DNA of 64,000 bases from Hormiphora californensis. Its lineage: Eukaryota > Animalia > Ctenophora. The translations under genes were made by a program, and so were the position numbers. The notes under the pieces were generated by a model. That model saw only the letters and a list, made by a program, of their open reading frames with translations. It was not told the DNA's origin and ran no database searches. The DNA lies in the NCBI GenBank assembly GCA_020137815.1, contig CM035357.1, positions 7,502,001 to 7,566,000 on the forward strand. Reading direction: 5' to 3'. This document shows positions 23,306 to 42,614 of this stretch, in pieces (position 1 is the stretch's first letter; each line of letters opens with the position of its first letter).

Positions 23306-26300
23306 TTAACAGAATCCGCATGTTTTTGGGCAGTATAGTTTCATGTATCCGTAGAACTGGCTCTCCAAGGTACAGTGGGCTGACCAATCGGGCTGGCAGG
23401 AAGCATCGTCCTTACAAACTGTAAGAAGAGTTGTCAGGAACTGACTATAATATCGTACACGCTGCCTTTGGCCCGGTTTGGAGAGTGCAGTGAGACAATA
23501 ATCATAATAATAAGGGTTGTTATAATACGGGGACTTGGGAAACGGTTTAAACAAAAAAGATTAAAGGTAATTGGGTCATTTCGGAGTTGTTTTACCTGAA
23601 CCTGCTGCCGCCACTTCTTTTCCTTTCTTTCCTTTCTTTCCCTTCTTTCCCTTTTTCTTATTTTTTCGTTCTTTCCTTCGTCCTTTTCGTTCCTTTCGTT
23701 GCTGTTTTCGTTCCTTTCTTTGCTGTTTCTTCCTTTCTTTTTCGTCTGAAAACTCTTTGTCATCGGGCATGTCTTCGGGTGGGAAACTATCATCTTCCAT
23801 GTCTTCAGGTGGGAAACTATCGTCCTCCATGTCCTCAGGTGGGAAACTATCGTCTTCCATGTCCTCAGGTGGGAAACTATCGTCTTCCATGTCCTCAGGT
23901 TGGAAACTATCATCCTCGGGTGGTACTGGGACGTCTTTTCTATCGTCTTTGAACTCATAATTTTCCTTGTCTTCGGGTGGTACTGGGTAATCTTCTCTGA
24001 GATTTCTACTTTCAACGATATCTTTCTTTCCTTCCCTTTCCTTCCTCTTTTCTTGTCGTTCCTTCCTCTTTGCTTGTCGTGCCTTCTTCTTTTCTTGTCT
24101 TTCCTTCTTTCGCTGTTTTCTCTTCTCCTGTCGTTCCCTCCTTTTGTCTTTCTTAGACTTCTTCTCGTCAGGCGTGTCCTCTGGCTTCGCATCCTTCTTG
24201 TCTGGAATATCGTCTGATTCATCTTCTGGGATATCATTAGGCGTTTCCCAATCATCCGGCATTTCATCTTCTTCTTCATCTTCTACTGGGATATCTTTAG
24301 GCGTTTCCCACTCATCTGGCATTTCATCTTCTTCTTCTTCTTCAAAGAAATCAAAGGGAAGATCTTTCGTTTCGCCCTTAGAATCATCAAAGGGAAGATC
24401 TTTTGTGTCGCCCTTAGAATCATCATCGACCGATACCTCTCCTGGATTACCGCCGGACCGAACTTCGTTGTTCCAGTTTTTCTGTCTTTTTCGATCTGAA
24501 AGAGTCATAAACCTTTTTAAATCGTTTTTAATGCAAATAATGCCAATAACGGTAAAGGGAACAAAAACTGGTAAACTACATCCTCTATTGCTTACTTCGT
24601 TCGTTTCTGTTGTATCTTTTACAGGTTGCAGGGCACGTCTTCATCATCCGTACGTGGTTAGGGTGTCGTTTATCACAGGCCGCGGTGTGGTATTGACAAT
24701 CCGAACTGATATCTATGAGAAAAAACAGGTTCAAGGCGGGCAGTATAAGGTAGTCACACGGATTCCCGCACAGATTCTAAACTGAACTGAAGCGGTAATT
24801 GGGTGTTCCGATTGGGGTTCGACAACAATCAAATATATAATCTCAAGAGGTGAGATCTCACCTTGTCCTTCGTTCATGTCCTGATTCCTTTTCTTGCAGT
24901 AAATAGGACATTCTCTCATCATCCACCAGTAGTGTTCGTGTTGTTTATCGCACATTGCACGATACGTTGCACAATCCGCACGCTTGTCTGAGATGGGGGG
25001 GGGGGGGTGCAGTGTCATTAAAAATGCAGTACTGTCCAGTGACACTACCAGTACTGCCCAGTGACACTACCAGTACTGCCCAGTGACACTACCAGTACTG
25101 TCCAGTGACACTACCAGTACTGTCCAGTGACACTACCAGTACTGCCCAGTGACACTACCAGTACTGTCCAGTGACACTACCAGTACTGTCCAGTGACACT
25201 ACCAGTACCTAAGACAAAGAATAATAACATCATGTTTCATCACGTTTTAAATTCTACCTTTTTCTTCAATTATCCCATTTTCCTTATTGTACTTTTTACA
25301 GGTTGCAGGACATTTTTTCACCATCAACCGGTAATTAGCTTCCAGTGGATCACATAATTTAATGTACAGAGGACATTTTTCACTAGTATCCACGCACTCT
25401 TCTAGGGAAATATTATTAATTGGAATGAAAAATAAACAAGAATATTTGCACTATCTATCCATAGCGCTGTATTTTCCGGTAGGCGGCAAATGTTAACCAG
25501 ATCTGTGAGAATTTCGCACGTTTTTGCCCATAACTCAGCCATTTCTTGACCAATTTGCAAAATTTTTGGCTCATTGAGATCTCTCAAATGAGCTCAAGAA
25601 AATTAAAATTGGCGCAAACTGTGCGGCGTGGTGGCAAAAACGTGCATTTTGCACCATGACGCCGCACATTTTTATTGGGCTCATTTGAAAGAGCTCAATG
25701 TCCTCTTTCCAACGCGCTCAAGATTTTGCAAATTGGTCAAGAAATGACTGAGTTATGGACAAAAGCGTGGTTTTGCACGTACGTATACTACAGGTGACGA
25801 GAAAAACTCTCATAATATGTTAGGCAGTACCTTCATCTTTGTCCATCCCACCGTCTTTATTGTACTTTTTGCAGGTTGCAGGGCAATCTTTTATCACCAA
25901 CTGGTAGTTTTGGTGTAGTGGATCACATTCGTTTATCCATTTTGGACAATCCTGAAGTTTGTCCACACACTCTTCTAGGGAAACCGGAGGAACAACATTA
26001 AAAGTTGGCGGTTCACTGAATTTTAAAGAATAGCAATGTTGGCAAATCCCCCCAAACTTTGCCCATTTCCCCCCTGGGTGAATGCCGATGGTCGATCCTA
26101 CCTTCATCCTTTTGGTACTTTTTACAGGTAGCAGGACAATTTTTTATCATCCACGGGTATTTAGCTTTCAGTGGATCACAGAGGTGGATGTAGCGAGGAC
26201 ATCTCTCATCAGTGTCCACACACTCTTCTAGGAAAACATTTAATTGGAATGAAAATTGAACAAAAATGTTTGCACTATCTATCCATAGCGCTGTATTTTC

Positions 26301-27615
26301 CTGCCGTTATATTGGTCATGTGAGATTCTGAAATGTGCAACAGTACAGCGTGACGAGAAAAACTCTTATAATATATGTTAGGCAGTACTCAGTAGGCAGT
26401 ACCTTCATCTTTGTCCATCCCACCGTCTTTATTATATCTTTTGCAGGTTGCAGCGCATTCTTTTATCACCAACTGGTAGTTTTGGTGTAGTGGATCACAT
26501 TCGTTTATCCATTTTGAACAATCCTGACGTTTGTCCACACACTCTTCTAGAGAGGAACAACAAGTTGGCGGTTCACTGAATTTTTAAGGATGGCAATGTT
26601 AAAAAGTTTGCCCATTTCTCCCCTGGGTGAATGCCGGTGGTCTTACCTTCACCCTTAGCCTCTCGGTACTTTTTACAGGTTGCAGGACACTTTTTAACCA
26701 TCAACTGGTATTTAGCTTCCAGTGGATCACAGTATTCAATGTACAGAGGACATTTCTCACTACTATCCACACACTCTTCTAGGGAAACAACATTAACTGG
26801 AATCATCTAATAATATGTAATAAGAATAATAATAAATAGTTTGGCCATACGGCCAACTCGACTTGTACCGTACAAAAATTATGTCTAAACTCACTTCCAT
26901 TTTCCACTATTGTAGAATCATCTGTATCGTCTTCAGAGAGGAAGGGGTCTTCAGTTTCGTCTTGAGAGGGGGAAAGGTCTTCAGTTTCGTCTTCAGACTC
27001 TTCTTTCTCTGAAATTTGATGATTCAACTTTGTAACTTGCTACATGACAAAATTTTCACGGGCAAGTAAGAAATCTGAATAGTTAGGATAGAGGGTTAAT
27101 ATTATTTAACATTATAATGCGAACTGGGATGATGTAATAATACACAGCCACGGATACCTTCTTTTTCGCAGCCCGCCACATTGCAAGTAGAAGGACAACT
27201 TGTCTTCATCCAGTCCACGTTTTTACCCTCTGTACATTGGTCAACCCATTCAGGACACCCTGGAAATTCATCTTTACACCTTTCTTCCATTAGCAGATTC
27301 GATTGTCCAAAGGCCGGCACTTCACTAATGCGTCCATCAGGGGCACCTGTGGCAAGTAGAGTCAGTACGGGTCCAGTGACAAGGTCAGAGTAGTTAGATC
27401 TCAATTGCAATATTACCTTGAATACAGTTTTTACACATTTTAGGGCAGTTGGTAAGCATGTACATGGAGTACTCTGAACCAATGCAGTATTCCTTCCACT
27501 CAGAACGACAGTTGTCGGCATCTTTACACTCATTTATTGTGCTCACACTACTGCCTAGCACCTCTGCAGCAGCTGCTGTGCTGACTAGCAGCACCAGCGG
27601 AAAAGCTAAATTCAT
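23306..27615 (-). CDS. Secreted multi-ShK-domain protein with alternating acidic and Lys/Arg-rich blocks
   Basis: Signal peptide MNLAFPLVLLVSTAAAA; about 10 ShK-type modules on phase-1 exons (C..D...C..W...C......M...CP.TC); FPPEDMEDDS repeats; C-terminal CKDDASC...YCPKTCGFC*. Confidence 0.85.
25033..25208. repeat. 22-bp intronic minisatellite, about 8 copies
   Basis: ccagtgacactaccagtactg(t/c) in tandem. Confidence 0.9.
25480..25793. mobile_element. Palindromic MITE in an intron of the ShK gene
   Basis: tttgcccataactcagccatttcttgaccaatttgcaaaa mirrored by ttttgcaaattggtcaagaaatgactgagttatggacaaa; absent from the paralogous intron at ~26300-26348. Confidence 0.7.
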
Positions 27616-28254
27616 CCGTGGTGTTCTAAAAAGTACAAATCTCATGTAAAGACTCTAACTTTGAAGGAGACAATTCGAGGAGAGCAATGAAGTAATGAAG
27701 GAGAGCAATAGAGTAATGCTGAAGGAAGTCGTGAGGACACGTCTGTCAGAGCATTGACCTGACAGGGACACGTCCTGGGACCTGGGTGTGGGAGGTCATT
27801 TGAGTCTGAATTGTGAGCACTGAGAATTTAACTTTTTAATTTTGAATAGATTATTTTTATTATTAAATCTGAGTTTACCCTCTTACTTGGGAGGAAAATT
27901 GGTATTTGGTACCCAGAATCACCCTCGGATAGTGTACCAACTACCATAAAAAAGTTCAAGAGCGTATTAGACCCAAGAGCGCACCACATTTAGAAGAGAC
28001 TACTCCAAGAGAGCTCCCCATCAAAAAGATACCTCTCTTGGAGCTGAGTGGTCTCTACCACTAGTATTAAACATCGGTCTATTATGTAGTCAAACTGTGA
28101 AAGTGAAGTGAGGGGCGCCGTTACAATCTGGGTGTCTGGTGGCCTCTTTACAGGTGCACGATTCCAAAAAAGTATCATGCGCATTGCGCTAAAATGGCTC
28201 TAACCACTAAACCGCTCAACCGTTTTGGCTAATCCAAAGTTTATAGTCGAATTT

Positions 28255-28434
28255 GGGACAGGGAGGGTCTTTTTGACCTTGTTTCAAACACGCATATCTC
28301 CTGTTCTGGATGAGATAAAAACTTGAAATTTCAACTTAGCATGATCTTCCTAACCTCCAAATTTCAAGTCTCTATCTCATCAGGAACCGGAGATATGCGC
28401 GTTTGAAATAAAGTAAAAAAAGACCCCCTGTCCC
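28255..28434. mobile_element. Palindromic MITE fragment truncating the retroelement ORF (second copy at 31248-31427)
   Basis: gggacagggagggtctttttgacc...gatgagat mirrored by atctcatc...aaaaaagaccccctgtccc. Confidence 0.65.
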
Positions 28435-29512
28435 TATAATATCTGATTGAAAATTTCAAGCCCTTACCCCAATCCAAACCTCGGGGCTCGAATGAATTAC
28501 CCTTGGTAGGGGCTACTTCACTTCTCCGAGTGTTCTTTAAATGTGTGTCTTTACATTCTTTGTCGGTACAGACTCGGGAGATCTCAGACTTATGGCAGAG
28601 AGGTGGGTGAAAATCCTGGCACTGGTCACCATAGTTACACCCAGAACGAGTTGCCGTTCCGAACTGACAATAACGGAGGCATCTCTGGGGATGTTCCTTG
28701 CTGCAAGGCTTACCACTGATCAACTTGTCACCATTTGGGCCATGGGGACAGTCTCTCAGTAGATAACGTTCACAAACATTGCTGAATTTAGGAACACCTT
28801 GGGGTTTCACCTCTCCATCAGAAGATATGTCTCCAAGATCCACATCTTTTAGAACTGTCACTCCACCAACAGGAGTTACCAGATCATCAGGATCTTTCTT
28901 GACAGGAGCTTGTTTCTTCTTCCTCTTCTTCTTACCGCTACGGCCTGCCTTTGGACTGATTTTGAACTCGTATTCCTCATCAGATAACACTGATTCTGGA
29001 TCTTCAGCACTTCGGTTGCACATGAAGGTTTCAATTTTGTTGTTTTTGTCCTTGCACGGCAGACACAACCAGACCGACCCCGTCAATGACCCAAGGGTGC
29101 CATCCATAGCCTCGCAATCATGAGACCCCTGCTGGCAAAGAAAACAGCGGACACGAGGAGATTCACCTGGTTTAACTGCATACCCTTCGCCACAGCCCTC
29201 ACAGTCACAAGGAAAATGACTTTCCAGCTGAATGATGATGTAATCGGCTAGTGTAGTGCGGTTCTGGTACCGCTTAGTTTTATCTGCATGTGAGCCGGGG
29301 GATGCACCGAAAAACGATGCAGCGGCTTCCAGGTGAGCACAGTTGAATGTGCGGATGATGTCTAGATTCTTGGTGTAATCCACATCATGGCGGTAGGCAG
29401 ACAGGATCTTTTTGGTAAGGGGATCTGCTGCGTTTACAAGATTTCCAACGGCAAGGGCATTGCCATCACTTTTGTCATCAGTAGGTGTAGCCATATTTGT
29501 CATATCTGGCAT
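28364..29512 (-). CDS. Non-LTR retrotransposon ORF1-like protein (PHD finger plus three CCCH-type knuckles), 3'-truncated; copy 1
   Basis: Intronless 382 aa. CEGC...CFLCQQGSHDC...WLCLPC is PHD-like; basic KKKRKKK; CCCH repeats CERYLLRDCPHG...CSKEHP..C...CNYGDQCQDFHPPLC...CTDKECKDTH. The last ~40 aa read through a MITE; no ORF2. Confidence 0.7.
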   Translation of the reverse strand: MPDMTNMATPTDDKSDGNALAVGNLVNAADPLTKKILSAYRHDVDYTKNLDIIRTFNCAHLEAAASFFGASPGSHADKTKRYQNRTTLADYIIIQLESHFPCDCEGCGEGYAVKPGESPRVRCFLCQQGSHDCEAMDGTLGSLTGSVWLCLPCKDKNNKIETFMCNRSAEDPESVLSDEEYEFKISPKAGRSGKKKRKKKQAPVKKDPDDLVTPVGGVTVLKDVDLGDISSDGEVKPQGVPKFSNVCERYLLRDCPHGPNGDKLISGKPCSKEHPQRCLRYCQFGTATRSGCNYGDQCQDFHPPLCHKSEISRVCTDKECKDTHLKNTRRSEVAPTKGNSFEPRGLDWGKGLKFSIRYYRDRGSFFTLFQTRISPVPDEIET

Positions 29513-29557
29513 GGCTAGAGCCTACAGAGGGATATTCGAAAACGCACGGGCGCGCGC

Positions 29558-29597
29558 CTCAAATTAATTTGTTTAAAGTAGTGTTGAAAAGTTTGAA
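29558..29597 (-). other. Genomic copy of the ctenophore spliced-leader exon, not followed by a GT donor; copy 1
   Basis: Minus strand TTCAAACTTTTCAACACTACTTTAAACAAATTAATTTGAG matches the ctenophore SL as I recall it; followed by GCGCGC. Confidence 0.8.
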
Positions 29598-30264
29598 GCC
29601 CTAACCCTTAAAAAACCGTGAGTGCTGACACTCCAAACACCCAGATTTTAACGCTGGCTTGGCAAAACGCTGCTGGCCCCCGCGGGATAAGGCAGCGCTT
29701 TTCAAGCTGGCCAGTGGCCTGAAGTGAGCAAAATAAAAAAGGGCGTCACTTTTGTTTTTTTGGGATTCTTTTTTTAAAGCTCAGCTCGCCGCGCGCGCGT
29801 TCGAATACGCTGCATTTGCGTGCCGCGCACTGAATACCCAAAAAAGCTCATCAAAAAGATCACTGCACCTTTTCGCTCACTGGTCTGTTTTGGTCTGTTG
29901 GTCCATCCAAACGCCCCATCCTATCTGAAGGTGCCCATCTCCAACCTGTATAAACAGCACCAAAATCAAAAGAAACTGGCATACATGCGAAGGGTACAAG
30001 AAGTGGAGCAGGGTTCATTCACCCCTCTTGTATTCTCCAGCCATTATCTTAGCATAGCTTTTTATTCTATTATTCCAAGACGACCGCTTTAGTCGCGGTG
30101 GAGAGATGTTCATACAACACTAGCCATTAGGTTTTTAGTTGTTTCCTCCATTTATAACGCATAAAAGCGGTATATCAAATGTATATATTATTATTAAAAA
30201 AAACTATTTATTGAGCAGGAAGATGTACGTTATGTGACCGCCCCAAAGGGCAGATAAACACGAA

Positions 30265-31233
30265 ATGACTGAATTTGATTATGAAGATCCACGATTTTTC
30301 CTGGGGGGTAGAGGTCGCGAAAAAGATTTTGTCACCTACGCCAAGAACTAACGGTCGAGTGGGTGAGGGGGGGAGGGTCCGACGAAAAGGAGGGGTTTTG
30401 GGGAAAGGGGAAAACCCCAATAAGTAATCTATGACCCGGATAATGTAGAGAATCGGTACGGACTTCGCTGATGATTGGAACAATCTGGAGTTTCGCGGGG
30501 GATAAACGAATAACTCGCTGAAAAGCCCAGAATCGTAGGTTTTTTGAAGTGCGTTTAAAATACTGAGGGTCGCTTTTCCCATTGTCCGGAGCTGTTTTAA
30601 GGGGGGGGATGATACACTAAAAAGGGGGAAGAAGTTCGGAAGGAGTCAAAAAAACGCGAAGGAAGAGCTAATCAAAACCCCAGAGGATTTTGGTTGCTGC
30701 CAAAGGAGGAGTGTAAAAAAGCAGAGGGCGAAATTTTCGAAAAAAGAGGGGGGGAAAAAGAAACTGAAAAACACCCTGTTCGGGGAAAAGGCCACGCGGG
30801 GAAATAAAAAGCTTTGCATCTGTTCTGGAGAAAGAGTGTTTTCTACTGCCCTGGCCCCAAAAAAATACAGTCGGCTCTTCGCGCAAAGGGTTTATCGTGG
30901 ATTGTAACTCATTCCCTGGTGGGAACGAATGAATGACAAGAGTGATAGCTTGAAAATCAAGGGAAGTCCATTTTTTTCTGAGGGGGAAGGGCTCCGGTTT
31001 TTTTGGGCTCCTTTGTGCATTGGAAAGCAGTCCAAACGCCAGACCATGAAAATAAAATGCTTCGAAACAGGGAGGGTCAGAATCGATTCGTCGAAAAAAA
31101 AGCATGAGAGGGACTGAAAAAATGATTTTAAAAAGGTATTTCCCCCGGGTTTAAAACCCGGAGGGGAAAAAGAAAGTTAGGGGAAAAAATGTTTTTAGAC
31201 GAATTTTAAAAAAAAGGTAAGAGGTATTTCCAG
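30265..31233 (+). pseudogene. Garbled copy of ORF 33257-34255; probable low-quality assembly segment
   Basis: Collinear with 33257-34210, but differences are mostly homopolymer smearing. Confidence 0.75.
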
Positions 31234-31356
31234 TTATAGTCGAATTTGGGACAGGGAGGGTCTTTTTGACCTTGTTTCAAACACGCATATCTCCTGTTCT
31301 GGATGAGATAAAAACTTGAAATTTCAACTTAGCATGATCTTCCTAACCTCCAAATT

Positions 31357-32505
31357 TCAAGTCTCTATCTCATCAGGAACCGGAGATATGCGCGTTTGAA
31401 ATAAAGTAAAAAAAGACCCCCTGTCCCTATAATATCTGATTGAAAATTTCAAGCCCTTACCCCAATCCAAACCTCGGGGCTCGAATGAATTACCCTTGGT
31501 AGGGGCTACTTCACTTCTCCGAGTGTTCTTTAAATGTGTGTCTTTACATTCTTTGTCGGTACAGACTCGGGAGATCTCAGACTTATGGCAGAGAGGTGGG
31601 TGAAAATCCTGGCACTGGTCACCATAGTTACACCCAGAACGAGTTGCCGTTCCGAACTGACAATAACGGAGGCATCTCTGGGGATGTTCCTTGCTGCAAG
31701 GCTTACCACTGATCAACTTGTCACCATTTGGGCCATGGGGACAGTCTCTCAGTAGATAACGTTCACAAACATTGCTGAATTTAGGAACACCTTGGGGTTT
31801 CACCTCTCCATCAGAAGATATGTCTCCAAGATCCACATCTTTTAGAACTGTCACTCCACCAACAGGAGTTACCAGATCATCAGGATCTTTCTTGACAGGA
31901 GCTTGTTTCTTCTTCCTCTTCTTCTTACCGCTACGGCCTGCCTTTGGACTGATTTTGAACTCGTATTCCTCATCAGATAACACTGATTCTGGATCTTCAG
32001 CACTTCGGTTGCACATGAAGGTTTCAATTTTGTTGTTTTTGTCCTTGCACGGCAGACACAACCAGACCGACCCCGTCAATGACCCAAGGGTGCCATCCAT
32101 AGCCTCGCAATCATGAGACCCCTGCTGGCAAAGAAAACAGCGGACACGAGGAGATTCACCTGGTTTAACTGCATACCCTTCGCCACAGCCCTCACAGTCA
32201 CAAGGAAAATGACTTTCCAGCTGAATGATGATGTAATCGGCTAGTGTAGTGCGGTTCTGGTACCGCTTAGTTTTATCTGCATGTGAGCCGGGGGATGCAC
32301 CGAAAAACGATGCAGCGGCTTCCAGGTGAGCACAGTTGAATGTGCGGATGATGTCTAGATTCTTGGTGTAATCCACATCATGGCGGTAGGCAGACAGGAT
32401 CTTTTTGGTAAGGGGATCTGCTGCGTTTACAAGATTTCCAACGGCAAGGGCATTGCCATCACTTTTGTCATCAGTAGGTGTAGCCATATTTGTCATATCT
32501 GGCAT
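31357..32505 (-). CDS. Non-LTR retrotransposon ORF1-like protein (PHD plus CCCH); copy 2
   Basis: Identical translation to 28364-29512. Confidence 0.7.
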   Translation of the reverse strand: MPDMTNMATPTDDKSDGNALAVGNLVNAADPLTKKILSAYRHDVDYTKNLDIIRTFNCAHLEAAASFFGASPGSHADKTKRYQNRTTLADYIIIQLESHFPCDCEGCGEGYAVKPGESPRVRCFLCQQGSHDCEAMDGTLGSLTGSVWLCLPCKDKNNKIETFMCNRSAEDPESVLSDEEYEFKISPKAGRSGKKKRKKKQAPVKKDPDDLVTPVGGVTVLKDVDLGDISSDGEVKPQGVPKFSNVCERYLLRDCPHGPNGDKLISGKPCSKEHPQRCLRYCQFGTATRSGCNYGDQCQDFHPPLCHKSEISRVCTDKECKDTHLKNTRRSEVAPTKGNSFEPRGLDWGKGLKFSIRYYRDRGSFFTLFQTRISPVPDEIET

Positions 32506-32550
32506 GGCTAGAGCCTACAGAGGGATATTCGAAAACGCACGGGCGCGCGC

Positions 32551-32590
32551 CTCAAATTAATTTGTTTAAAGTAGTGTTGAAAAGTTTGAA
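32551..32590 (-). other. Genomic spliced-leader exon copy 2
   Basis: Identical to 29558-29597. Confidence 0.8.
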
Positions 32591-33031
32591 GCCCTAACCC
32601 TTAAAAAACCGTGAGTGCTGACACTCCAAACACCCAGATTTTAACGCTGGCTTGGCAAAACGCTGCTGGCCCCCGCGGGATAAGGCAGCGCTTTTCAAGC
32701 TGGCCAGTGGCCTGAAGTGAGCAAAATAAAAAAGGGCGTCACTTTTGTTTTTTGGGATTCTTTTTTTAAAGCTCAGCTCGCCGCGCGCGCGTTCGAATAC
32801 GCTGCATTTGCGTGCCGCGCACTGAATACCCAAAAAAGCTCATCAAAAAGATCACTGCACCTTTTCGCTCACTGGTCTGTTTTGGTCTGTTGGTCCATCC
32901 AAACGCCCCATCCTATCTGAAGGTGCCCATCTCCAACCTGTATAAACAGCACCAAAATCAAAAGAAACTGGCATACATGCGAAGGGTACAAGAAGTGGAG
33001 CAGGGTTCATTCACCCCTCTTGTATTCTCCA

Positions 33032-34488
33032 GCCATTATCTTAGCATAGCTTTTTATTCTATTATTCCAAGACGACCGCTTTAGTCGCGGTGGAGAGATG
33101 TTCATACAACACTAGCCATTAGGTTTTTAGTTGTTTCCTCCATTTATAACGCATAAAAGCGGTATATCAAATGTATATATTATTATTAAAAAAAACTATT
33201 TATTGAGCAGGAAGATGTACGTTATGTGACCGCCCCAAAGGGCAGATAAACACGAAATGACTGAATCTGATTATGAAGATCCACGATTTTACCTGGGAGT
33301 AGAGGTCGCTGAACAAGATGATGTCACCTACTGCCAAGAACTAACGGTCGAGTGGGTGAGAGAGGTCCTGACGAAAACTGGAGGTTTTGGGAAGGTAGAC
33401 CCGAATAAGATAATCTATGACCCGGATAATGTAGAGAATCGGTACGGACTATCTGCTGATGATTGGAACAATCTGGAGTTTCCGACGTGGGATAAACTGA
33501 ATAACTCGCTGAAAAAGCCAGAACTCGTAGGTCTTGTTGAGAGTGCGTTCAAAATACTGATGGGTCAGACTTTTCCTATTGTCGCGGAGCTGTTTTCAAT
33601 GGGTGATGATACACTACGGGTGAAGAAGTTCGAGAAGGAGCTCAAAACGCGAAGCGAAGAGCTAATCAAAACCCAGAGAGATTTGGTAGCTGCACAGGAG
33701 GAGCTGCTAAAAATGCAGAGACGATTACTCGAAAAGAGAGAAACTGAAATCACCGCTGTTCAGACAACGGCACAGCTGGAAATAAAAAGCTTTGCATCTG
33801 TTCTGGAGAAAGAGTGTGCTACTGCCCTGGCCCCAAAAAAGATACAGTCGGCTCTTGCTGCAGCATCTGATGATCGTGGATGTAACATCATCATCCATGG
33901 CTTGGACGAACTGAATGACAAGAGTGATGAGCTTGAAACTCAAGTGAAGTCCATTTTTGCTGAGCTGGAAGAGGCTCCGGTTGTGACATCATTAGTGCGA
34001 TTGGGAAAGCAGTCTCAAACTGCCAGACCAGTGAAAGTAGTGCTTCGAAACAGGGATGCTCAGAAGTCGATTCTGTCGAAAAAATCGCAGCTGAGAGGGA
34101 CTGAAAAATATGATAAAGTGTATATTTCCCCGGATCGAACACCGGAGGAGAGAAATGTTAGGAAACTGTTGGTAGATCGACTAAAACAAATGGCTAAGAG
34201 GTATCCTGACAAACACTACATAATCCGTGGGAATGAGGTGGTTGAGGGTACCTGATTTGAATACTGTGTGAGTGTCGATGGGATATATGATAGAGTATTA
34301 AATAGTGAGCACGAACTCTTATCTATAGTCCTAGACTATTAACCCAATCTCGATCTAAGGAAGCCGCTTTAGAAAGTTCTAAACTATCCATTAAGGTTTA
34401 TCTTTATGTTAGTGCTAGTTTGTAATATGTGCTAAAAAGCGGGATATTAAATGTTTATTTGATGATGATGATGATGATATTATTATTA
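33032..34488 (+). mobile_element. ORF1-only non-autonomous non-LTR retroelement with a microsatellite tail
   Basis: Boundaries defined by the interrupted host ORF; no TSD; ends aaaagcgggatattaaatgtttattt(gat)n(att)n; no reverse transcriptase. Confidence 0.7.
33257..34255 (+). CDS. LINE ORF1-type protein (coiled coil, RRM, C-terminal domain; L2/CR1-like)
   Basis: Intact 332 aa; heptad-rich coil followed by NIIIHGLDE...VRLGK...RPVKVVL...ILSKKSQLR...VYISPDRTPEERNVRKLL. Confidence 0.8.
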   Translation: MTESDYEDPRFYLGVEVAEQDDVTYCQELTVEWVREVLTKTGGFGKVDPNKIIYDPDNVENRYGLSADDWNNLEFPTWDKLNNSLKKPELVGLVESAFKILMGQTFPIVAELFSMGDDTLRVKKFEKELKTRSEELIKTQRDLVAAQEELLKMQRRLLEKRETEITAVQTTAQLEIKSFASVLEKECATALAPKKIQSALAAASDDRGCNIIIHGLDELNDKSDELETQVKSIFAELEEAPVVTSLVRLGKQSQTARPVKVVLRNRDAQKSILSKKSQLRGTEKYDKVYISPDRTPEERNVRKLLVDRLKQMAKRYPDKHYIIRGNEVVEGT

Positions 34489-40431: not shown

Positions 40432-40666
40432 ATGTGTGTGCTGTATAAGTAGGTCTGGCATAGAACATTATATGCTGGTATTTTGTATTGAGGTAGGGAT
40501 AAAAAGTCTTCAGGGGAATATCTAACAGGGGTTATCTAGATCCAATCACTTTCTGAGAAATCATTGGCCCAGGCATATTTTATCATTCTTGCGGAATCGA
40601 GTGATAATTTATGGATTAAAAGTTAGTGATGCAGCTGTAGGTTCTGGAAGGTGTTGTGCACCTTAA

Positions 40667-42058
40667 GGGTACGCTAACCAAAAATTTTTTTCGAGTGCAG
40701 GGAAATCTCTCACCGTAGGGTTGTAGGCCATGCCAAGGAGACCTCAAATATGCAATTTGAGCTCTCAAGTCGAATTCATATTTTTGCTACAGCTGTTTAA
40801 AAAATGTCCTGAAAATACGTTTTTGGCATATCAAAAAATTTTTTTTAAAGATAGGAGCATGAAAATTTGGGGATTTGAAGAGGACATGAAGGTGAATAAC
40901 CACAAAAATTTTTTTTGCAATCCGAGCTGATTTCCGGTCCTGAGAAGGATTTCTTTTTTTCCACTTTAACGCCCTATTTGGCAAAGTTCCGAAAACATGT
41001 GAAAGCTGTAAATTGGTGAAAAGTTGCGTCTAACGATTATCTAAGTGGCCATAAATTTTAGGCGCGTCCTTATTTGAGATAAGCTGTACAGAATTTTTTT
41101 TTGTGAAAGCCGTCATTTCAGAAATAAATAAATTCCCTGTATCTCAAAAACGGCTGATCGTAGAGACCTGAGACTATGCTTAAACGATTCAGAAGGTCCG
41201 ATTTTGGGGGGGTCTTCTGAGAGACATTTTGCTCCTACTTCAACCGTTTTTGCTGTAATTGCGAAAAACAAATTCTATGAAAAGGGCAAAAGCTAAACTC
41301 CAATATCCTGTATTTAGGGAATTTTGGCTAAGAAAGGACCGAAACTATGGAAAAATATGTAACAAGCTAATTCCTTCACTATTTGGTCCATATGGGTCCC
41401 TATAATCACCAAAAACAAAATCACAAAAAATCCACGATGGCGAAGATGGGTTTTTGTTTTTCGCAATTACAGCAAAAACGGTTGAAGTAGGAGCAAAATG
41501 TCTCTCAGAAGACCCCCCCAAAATCGGACCTTCTGAATCGTTTAAGCATAGTCTCAGGTCTCTACGATCAGCCGTTTTTGAGATACAGGGAATTTATTTA
41601 TTTCTGAAATGACGGCTTTCACAAAAAAAAATTCTGTACAGCTTATCTCAAATAAGGACGCGCCTAAAATTTATGGCCACTTAGATAATCGTTAGACGCA
41701 ACTTTTCACCAATTTACAGCTTTCACATGTTTTCGGAACTTTGCCAAATAGGGCGTTAAAGTGGAAAAAAAGAAATCCTTCTCAGGACCGGAAATCAGCT
41801 CGGATTGCAAAAAAAATTTTTGTGGTTATTCACCTTCATGTCCTCTTCAAATCCCCAAATTTTCATGCTCCTATCTTTAAAAAAATTTTTTTGATATGCC
41901 AAAAACGTATTTTCAGGACATTTTTTAAACAGCTGTAGCAAAAATATGAATTCGACTTGAGAGCTCAAATTGCATATTTGAGGTCTCCTTGGCATGGCCT
42001 ACAACCCTACGGTGAGAGATTTCCCTGCACTCGAAAAAAATTTTTGGTTAGCGTACCC
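40667..42058. mobile_element. Foldback non-autonomous DNA transposon with ~600-bp TIRs and TTAA TSD (Kolobok-like termini)
   Basis: TTAA|gggtacgctaacc...ggttagcgtaccc|TTAA; arms ~40667-41272 and ~41453-42058 nearly identical in inversion. Confidence 0.9.
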
Positions 42059-42614
42059 TTAATCTAGATGAGATTAAACTTTAGGTACCGAATTTATTTT
42101 GTTATCAATCGGATAATTTATCAGCATTTTTAAGGAAACACCGCTCACCGTGCCTGTTATCATCGCTCCTATTTCGGAATTCCTAAACATTATTGTCTCC
42201 TCTGGAAATTGAATAATGGCCGCGGCTTCCTCAGATTTCAAAACGACCGCCCGGTATAATTCCTACTGCAATGTCTACTGCAATTCTGACAACAATACTC
42301 CCGTGAAACTGAATTCTTTCCACGCACGTGTAAAAACACAAAACAGTTAACCGGATTTAGCAACACTGTTTGATAATGATATTACACATGCACATATATA
42401 ACACTGCGTATTCAGCTGCAGTCTTGTTTGTCTCTCGAAGGATCTCCATTCTCTGAATTCTGGGCAGCATCTCCCCTTATCGATCCAGAAGACCGGAGAG
42501 AGGGGTAATTTTGAAAATATAATAAATTAAATTTACTCCGTTATCAGCTCTTATCAGCTCGCTCCCCCATCTCGTATAATAATGGGTCACCATCGCTCCG
42601 GCTTCATTTCCAAA

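Follow-up and report, generated by a model that had tools for sequence, protein, structure and literature searches.

A genomic spliced-leader copy as the probable 5′ end of a retro-inserted element in the ctenophore Hormiphora californensis

Background

Elements of the CRE/SLACS type are RLE-type non-LTR retroelements that insert site-specifically into spliced leader (SL) genes. NeSL is likewise a non-LTR element of the RLE type, and its site-specific insertions are found in SL exons (PMC4640811). In dinoflagellates, relict SLs mark retrogenes that arose from trans-spliced RNA; an AG within the relic can act as a new acceptor, and the relics stack because this acceptor AG is internal (PMC5585692, PMC12014239, PMC3942190). 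About 30% of transposable element (TE) Iso-Seq reads in Hydra carry an SL (PMC12220107). A PHD finger, a domain that will be met again below, occurs in ORF1 of CR1/L2 LINEs (PMC4120745).

The ctenophore leader was found 718 times in the genome of Hormiphora californensis and on 56% of its Iso-Seq reads, while 491 genomic leader copies were counted in Mnemiopsis (PMC8527503). In the available part of that paper the dispersed copies of this same leader are treated as leader loci, without a link to retroelements. A search of literature listings and abstract openings showed no paper that describes LINEs headed by a genomic SL, be it in ctenophores or in any other animal; the available parts of PMC7986045 and PMC12460157 likewise hold nothing on such elements.

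Here we describe a locus within a 64,000-nt stretch of H. californensis DNA (contig CM035357.1, positions 7,502,001 to 7,566,000), referred to as the window. As in dinoflagellate retrogenes, retroposition is probably marked by a DNA copy of the SL directly upstream of an intronless coding sequence; the cargo, however, consists of host genes in dinoflagellates and of retroelements themselves in the ctenophore case. The likeness to Hydra would lie in TE RNAs that use host trans-splicing in an animal, but the Hydra report, as far as its text was available, concerns RNA only (PMC12220107), whereas the ctenophore feature is an SL with which elements begin in genomic DNA.

Results and discussion

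A truncated copy of the leader exon on the minus strand

An earlier note on this DNA had placed a 40-mer at 29597–29558 on the minus strand, 45 nt upstream of an ATG at 29512, with an acceptor-like AG 9 nt before that ATG; position and gap were borne out, and the AG lies at 29523–29522. The 40-mer is identical (40/40 nt) to the 3′ part of the 44-nt leader printed for H. californensis, from its fifth nucleotide to its end (PMC8527503). We annotate 29558–29597 (minus strand) as a genomic copy of the ctenophore SL exon with the first 4 of 44 nt missing, standing at the 5′ end of an inserted element. The single AG in the 40-mer is formed by its final two bases. The window holds two copies of the 24-nt core of the 40-mer, where 0.00 are expected (100 shuffles), and a search of viral contigs with the core gave 0 matches.

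Scanning of seawater metagenome contigs for the SL pattern yielded at least 121 loci. Among the matches listed, the SL was flush with the contig end (fewer than 5 extra letters upstream) in 107 of 121, and 83 ORFs taken from 82 loci and scanned against Pfam, the remaining 39 loci being short and outside the scan, proved to be diverse host proteins. The note had taken the 40-mer for the leader trans-spliced onto ctenophore mRNAs, and it does head host mRNAs in these contigs; given its 5′-end position on many unrelated mRNAs, we regard it as a ctenophore SL exon.

Two of the loci (L087 and L088) are true SL RNA genes, arranged in tandem 778 bp apart and identical over 410 nt. They possess a GT donor and form three stems or stem-loops (folding z −3.9); no Rfam family matched them. 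The window SL copy is not part of an SL RNA gene. It lacks the GT donor, with GC coming directly 3′ of the 40-mer, exactly as had been read from the sequence. The L087 intron and the sequence 3′ of the window SL showed no similarity, and comparison of the window flank with SL-gene upstream sequence gave a score of 30 against a shuffle mean of 29.9 (99 of 200 shuffles scored as high), both results to be read with the proviso that L087 may come from another, related species.

An ORF1-like gene with PHD and CCCH fingers

What had been described downstream of the SL was an intronless ORF1-type gene. It is indeed intronless, but the 382-aa ORF is not intact, being a 3′-truncated copy with a read-through tail. 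Its closest relatives are 469–492 aa long and cease to align with it at 28478–28499; the copy therefore extends to about codon 344, beyond which the ORF is read-through. The genuine ORF1-like part, with a helical N-terminus, occupies 28479–29512 (minus strand, codons 1 to ~344), and the last ~39 codons form a spurious tail (28364–28478, minus strand) that runs into the right half of a DNA repeat, here called R, and a palindromic element. The 3′ simple-repeat tail is absent from this truncated copy.

The PHD/CCCH label proposed for the ORF holds, albeit weakly by library search. The PHD finger lies at about 29054–29203 and three CCCH-type fingers at about 28540–28775, both on the minus strand. 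The window protein alone matched no Pfam family, and a 9-sequence profile found no meaningful match in the PDB. A 103-sequence profile of the ORF family matched MLL1 PHD3 at E = 0.0011, zf-CCCH families matched 6–11 of the 103 members, and both the PHD-type and the CCCH-type Cys/His patterns are invariant in the family. The AlphaFold model of the ORF was poor (pLDDT 47.5), and a fold search led to middling helical matches (best Z 6.4). As a separate observation on the family proteins (P0023–P0169), an MBT domain was matched by 5 of 103 members and a Tudor-knot by 2 of 103.

This PHD plus triple-CCCH family is widespread and unnamed (2083 clusters at 50% identity). Nucleic-acid- or chromatin-binding fingers in ORF1 are a trait of APE-type LINEs of the CR1/L2 group, and the PHD/CCCH ORF possesses them. 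It shares with CR1/L2 ORF1s the PHD finger and a match to PDB chain 3lqh_A, the top match reported for one CR1/L2 subgroup; the CCCH type, in contrast, has 0 occurrences in the available text of the paper concerned (PMC4120745) and is present in the ctenophore family, which is known here from ORF1 without ORF2.

Full-length copies with an APE/RT ORF2 were found in other SL-headed families (three LINEs, described below) and not for the PHD/CCCH ORF: neither ORF2 nor RT was present within the window or linked to any PHD/CCCH ORF homolog found. Searches for longer fused forms of the ORF, which weigh little as evidence, and for its context in viral and prokaryote genome contigs found nothing. In both RNA-type runs (X20 and X22) no RNA contig lay over the ORF, depth there being confined to the SL. 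We regard the PHD/CCCH element as multi-copy and probably a non-LTR retroelement, with putative membership of an autonomous LINE.

Insertion into a high-copy repeat and size of the family

Sequencing depth was evaluated in X2 and X3, two DNA runs from the same organism as the window, while runs X13–X19, with small word shares, were left out. Family contig depth reached 4178.6 in X2, where haplotype-level contigs had 108.5–124.2, and 8093.8 in X3, where they had 229–320. With a depth ratio of about 25–35, a rough estimate, and a locus-specific flank, the element has the traits of a dispersed multi-copy family; it comprises roughly 25–35 near-identical copies, with subfamilies, bearing in mind that contig depth is not equal to copy number. 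The locus-specific upstream flank (29680–29880) is covered by difference-free contigs at depths of 259.7 (X2) and 194.5 (X3), which amounts to 1–2 times the haplotype level.

The left half of repeat R, a high-copy DNA repeat with telomere-like GGGTTA motifs and the target of the insertion, lies at 29598–29660 (minus strand). Depth was 21,000–67,000 at 29618–29657, with loose ends at 29609 and 29658. A joint 31471→32602, present in both DNA runs (depth 197 and 235.5), represents repeat R without the 1.1-kb insert, with about 4 letters standing where the insert would be. No SL intron was found after the insert, where repeat R resumes. We infer that a 3′-truncated SL+ORF fragment was inserted into repeat R without target duplication.

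As a candidate target-site duplication, the GGGT(T/A)AGGGCTT motifs on both sides were rejected, since they are two repeat-R motifs. No target-site duplication was seen in two further SL-headed loci, L042 and L064, whose flanks are short. The GGGTTA motifs of repeat R at 29598–29612 adjoin the SL. On the other side, a very high-copy palindromic, MITE-like element (28245–28440, arms 80% alike) is nested in repeat R, within its right half. The segment 28445–28478 of that half resembles the SL 5′ end, a likeness by which the junction may have been guided.

The loose ends at the two borders of the SL were heterogeneous (21–25 contigs each, agreement 0.41–0.45). The SL exceeds the assembly word in length, so that family copies cannot be phased with their flanks in contig data. 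Summed depth at 29664 was 7480 in X3, near the family depth, versus 636 in X2; given the X3 value, a short shared repeat-R flank is possible.

SL-headed LINEs in seawater contigs

Flank-bearing loci, defined as having 35 nt or more of SL and an upstream flank of 8 letters or more, numbered 10 among the matches listed: six retroelement-like, two SL genes, one without class and one host-mRNA-like. Retroelement-like heads were present in 6 of these 10 and in 1 of the 111 other loci (Fisher p = 3.7e-7, among the matches listed), a contrast that mixes DNA-type and RNA-type sets, takes its retroelement-like class from homology and Pfam queries alone and includes L042 and L064 with a flank of 8 letters each.

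Three loci hold complete SL-headed LINEs with APE and RT domains (L039:242–3280, L042:1395–4730 and L064:507–3530), in which ORF1, zinc-knuckle-like, and ORF2 are both uninterrupted. Their ORF2s are 54–57% identical, L042 and L064 have TTA tails at the 3′ end, and ORF layout and tail suggest CR1/L2 affinity for all three. L028 is a partial relative, and L071 is an SL-headed relative of a plus-strand ORF in the window (see below). L081, which has an SL and a flank to itself, is distantly homologous to the PHD/CCCH ORF (E = 4.5e-17, local search). Judged by eye, all six carry the identical 40-mer behind unrelated flanks and lack the first 1–4 leader bases, as expected where cDNA stops near the cap. 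Stacked SL relics were not found (best second match ≤9/12 in 7 loci and 7/12 in the window); dinoflagellate relics, with an internal acceptor AG, do stack, whereas the AG of the ctenophore 40-mer is terminal.

Several minor features of these loci were recorded. The first 6 nt after the SL contain 2–4 T in the six retroelement-like loci versus a mean of 1.25 in the other 111 (p = 1.6e-4). In L071 and L081 the SL is followed at once by an acceptor-like motif of pyrimidine+AG, as though an acceptor were kept in reserve; the ORF2 of L042 holds a glycine-rich tandem repeat; and in L085 a 35-nt SL copy with a 151-nt flank is followed by T-rich sequence. In run X22, three of the eight contigs listed over 29556–29597 have 48–70 letters upstream of an SL copy that itself shows 3–4 mismatches; they possibly represent read-through across genomic SL copies, the RNA status of X22 being a guess.

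A non-LTR-type element adjoining an SL exon is reminiscent of NeSL and CRE/SLACS, and one option raised earlier was that the element had landed precisely after the SL exon of such a gene, 29598–29900 being a hijacked promoter. Elements targeting SL exons do exist (PMC4640811). Nevertheless, we reject this option as highly improbable: the flank is unlike SL-gene upstream sequence, and 29598–29900 consists of a DNA repeat plus locus-specific sequence, not of an SL-gene promoter. The insert lies within repeat R with no SL intron after it, the window SL is 5′-truncated, and the flanks of eight loci and the window are unrelated by eye. Furthermore, NeSL and CRE/SLACS are RLE-type elements residing in SL genes, whereas the complete ctenophore SL-headed LINEs are APE-type and have unrelated flanks.

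The family could alternatively consist of processed pseudogenes that bear an SL, stem from a PHD/CCCH gene of the host and owe their mobilisation to LINEs acting in trans, a reading favoured by the lack of an ORF2 linked to the ORF and by a Pleurobrachia predicted protein (P0023) that is homologous to it at 39%. We consider this improbable in view of tens of near-identical copies with subfamilies, the number of clusters given above, the LINE-like size of the longest contig in 7 of 16 family representatives (4.3–5.1 kb, indirect evidence) and the commonness of PHD fingers in CR1/L2 ORF1s (PMC4120745). In addition, a clear host-gene head was seen in just one of the 10 flank-bearing loci, L089, where the 10 extra letters upstream are possibly the SL 5′ end plus adaptor.

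A spacer-less subfamily and the origin of the SL copy

The 40-mer is followed by a 36-nt spacer (29522–29557, minus strand; GC...AG) that ends in the second acceptor and is common to many family copies but missing in a subfamily. Depth over 29518–29537 was like that of the ORF start, which puts the spacer at family level. A joint 29519→29556, in which the spacer is gone and the SL is joined at 29522, had a depth of 643.2 in X2 and 50.9 in X12, in each run as one contig whose short side measures 24–26 letters and in which 4 letters are ambiguous; it was not seen in X3 and X7. Its depth in X2 matches that of divergent ORF contigs (620–660). These contigs show a genomic subfamily with the SL joined at the downstream acceptor. 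The spacer-less form is most simply read as the retro-insertion of RNA spliced at the alternative acceptor; the 4 shared letters would also permit a deletion by microhomology.

Among the options considered earlier, that of a retro-inserted, SL-trans-spliced RNA has in its favour the locus-specific flanks, the genomic subfamily spliced at 29522 and unrelated SL-headed LINEs. We estimate at roughly three in four the probability that the window SL is the 5′ end of such a retro-inserted RNA of a multi-copy element. In this scenario, element RNA would have been trans-spliced with the host SL and reverse transcribed to within 1–4 nt of the cap, and at the window locus only the first 1.1 kb would have been integrated. 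The window locus is itself a dead fragment.

SL mimicry fixed in the element, also proposed earlier, is unlikely, the 40-mer being unchanged across families whose ORF2s have diverged to the extent given above. Much the same low probability attaches to the SL as a fixed DNA part of the element that serves as internal promoter or initiator without trans-splicing, for which the SL-derived basal promoter proposed for dinoflagellate retrogenes (PMC5585692, PMC12014239, PMC3942190) offers a precedent. Against this reading, one and the same 40-mer stands in the window and in six other elements, the divergent LINEs among them; the copies lack 1–4 bases at the 5′ end without progressive erosion; and the spacer-less subfamily requires a splice event.

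Renewal of the 5′ end

On the preferred reading, that of retro-inserted trans-spliced RNA, the SL-headed elements likely copy themselves from leader-capped RNA, and the unchanged leader on divergent families points to renewal from SL RNA rather than inheritance. SL-headed copies could be active without a promoter of their own if read-through RNA were re-trans-spliced at the terminal AG of the 40-mer. This would restore an identical 5′ end at each cycle with no stacking, and occasional use of the downstream AG would give rise to the shorter subfamily. We advance such self-renewal tentatively, as falling somewhat short of even odds. Slightly more doubtful still is its extension to several unrelated ctenophore LINE and ORF1-only families, which would have given up their own promoter for the host SL as a self-renewing 5′ end, with most of the hundreds of genomic SL copies being retroelement heads rather than SL genes.

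The main rival accepts the same origin of the SL copy, but takes SL-headed copies to be dead ends, the masters having their own promoter and outron and being copied from unspliced RNA. This is the standard fate of retrocopies; it agrees with the lack of a transcript of the PHD/CCCH ORF in X20 and X22, and non-SL heads could hide beyond the best rows of loose ends. On the other hand, the three complete LINEs are SL-headed with uninterrupted ORF1 and ORF2, in a sample that is biased by having been found through the SL pattern, and no loose end at 29557 was present among the matches listed. On balance we hold the dead-end reading to be unlikely, if less so than the other alternatives.

LINEs need a promoter that is preserved through the RNA intermediate. 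Loss of the natural 5′ end by trans-splicing ought to be fatal to them, and the complete SL-headed LINEs suggest that they survive this step or exploit it. If so, the several hundred leader copies scattered over ctenophore genomes would be explained, such copies should not be scored as SL genes without caution, and an SL head would be a precise marker of full-length insertions. SL-headed elements also offer a chance to test whether the leader serves as its own acceptor, and the window locus points to a genome-wide tie between trans-splicing and LINE propagation.

A second unit and neighbouring elements

The window contains a second near-identical unit at 31234–33243 (minus strand; SL 32551–32590, ORF 31357–32505), at a period of 2993 and with one difference between the two units over 28241–30250. 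The sequence at 30250–31233 is an error-rich copy of 33250–34204, with 198 differences and almost no short-read support; depth was 0–10 at 30261–31013 in all four runs. The 2993-nt tandem duplicate may be an assembly artefact.

A separate ORF1-only retroelement-like sequence with a TGA/TTA tail lies at 33187–34484 on the plus strand. Its ORF (33257–34255) had no significant Pfam or PDB match, and its motifs suggest an L1-type ORF1. The 22 nt before 33209 (33187–33208) are possibly a decayed SL relic. Among 8722 AG-ending sites, 11 score as high, counting the two true SLs and the two copies of that site, and the likeness may be exaggerated by AT-richness. A relative, L015, has a perfect SL at the same place. 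A similar 3′ tail is present once more directly in front of this element (33032–33187, plus strand), and five X2 contigs pass from 33031 into sequence like that from 34485 onward, which suggests stacked insertions.

Elsewhere in the window, 40663–42062 holds a 610-bp inverted repeat whose arms are 99.8% identical and 180 bp apart. Host-gene exons on the minus strand at 23400–27650 encode Cys-rich repeats, presumably ShK-like, and an acidic/basic low-complexity tail.
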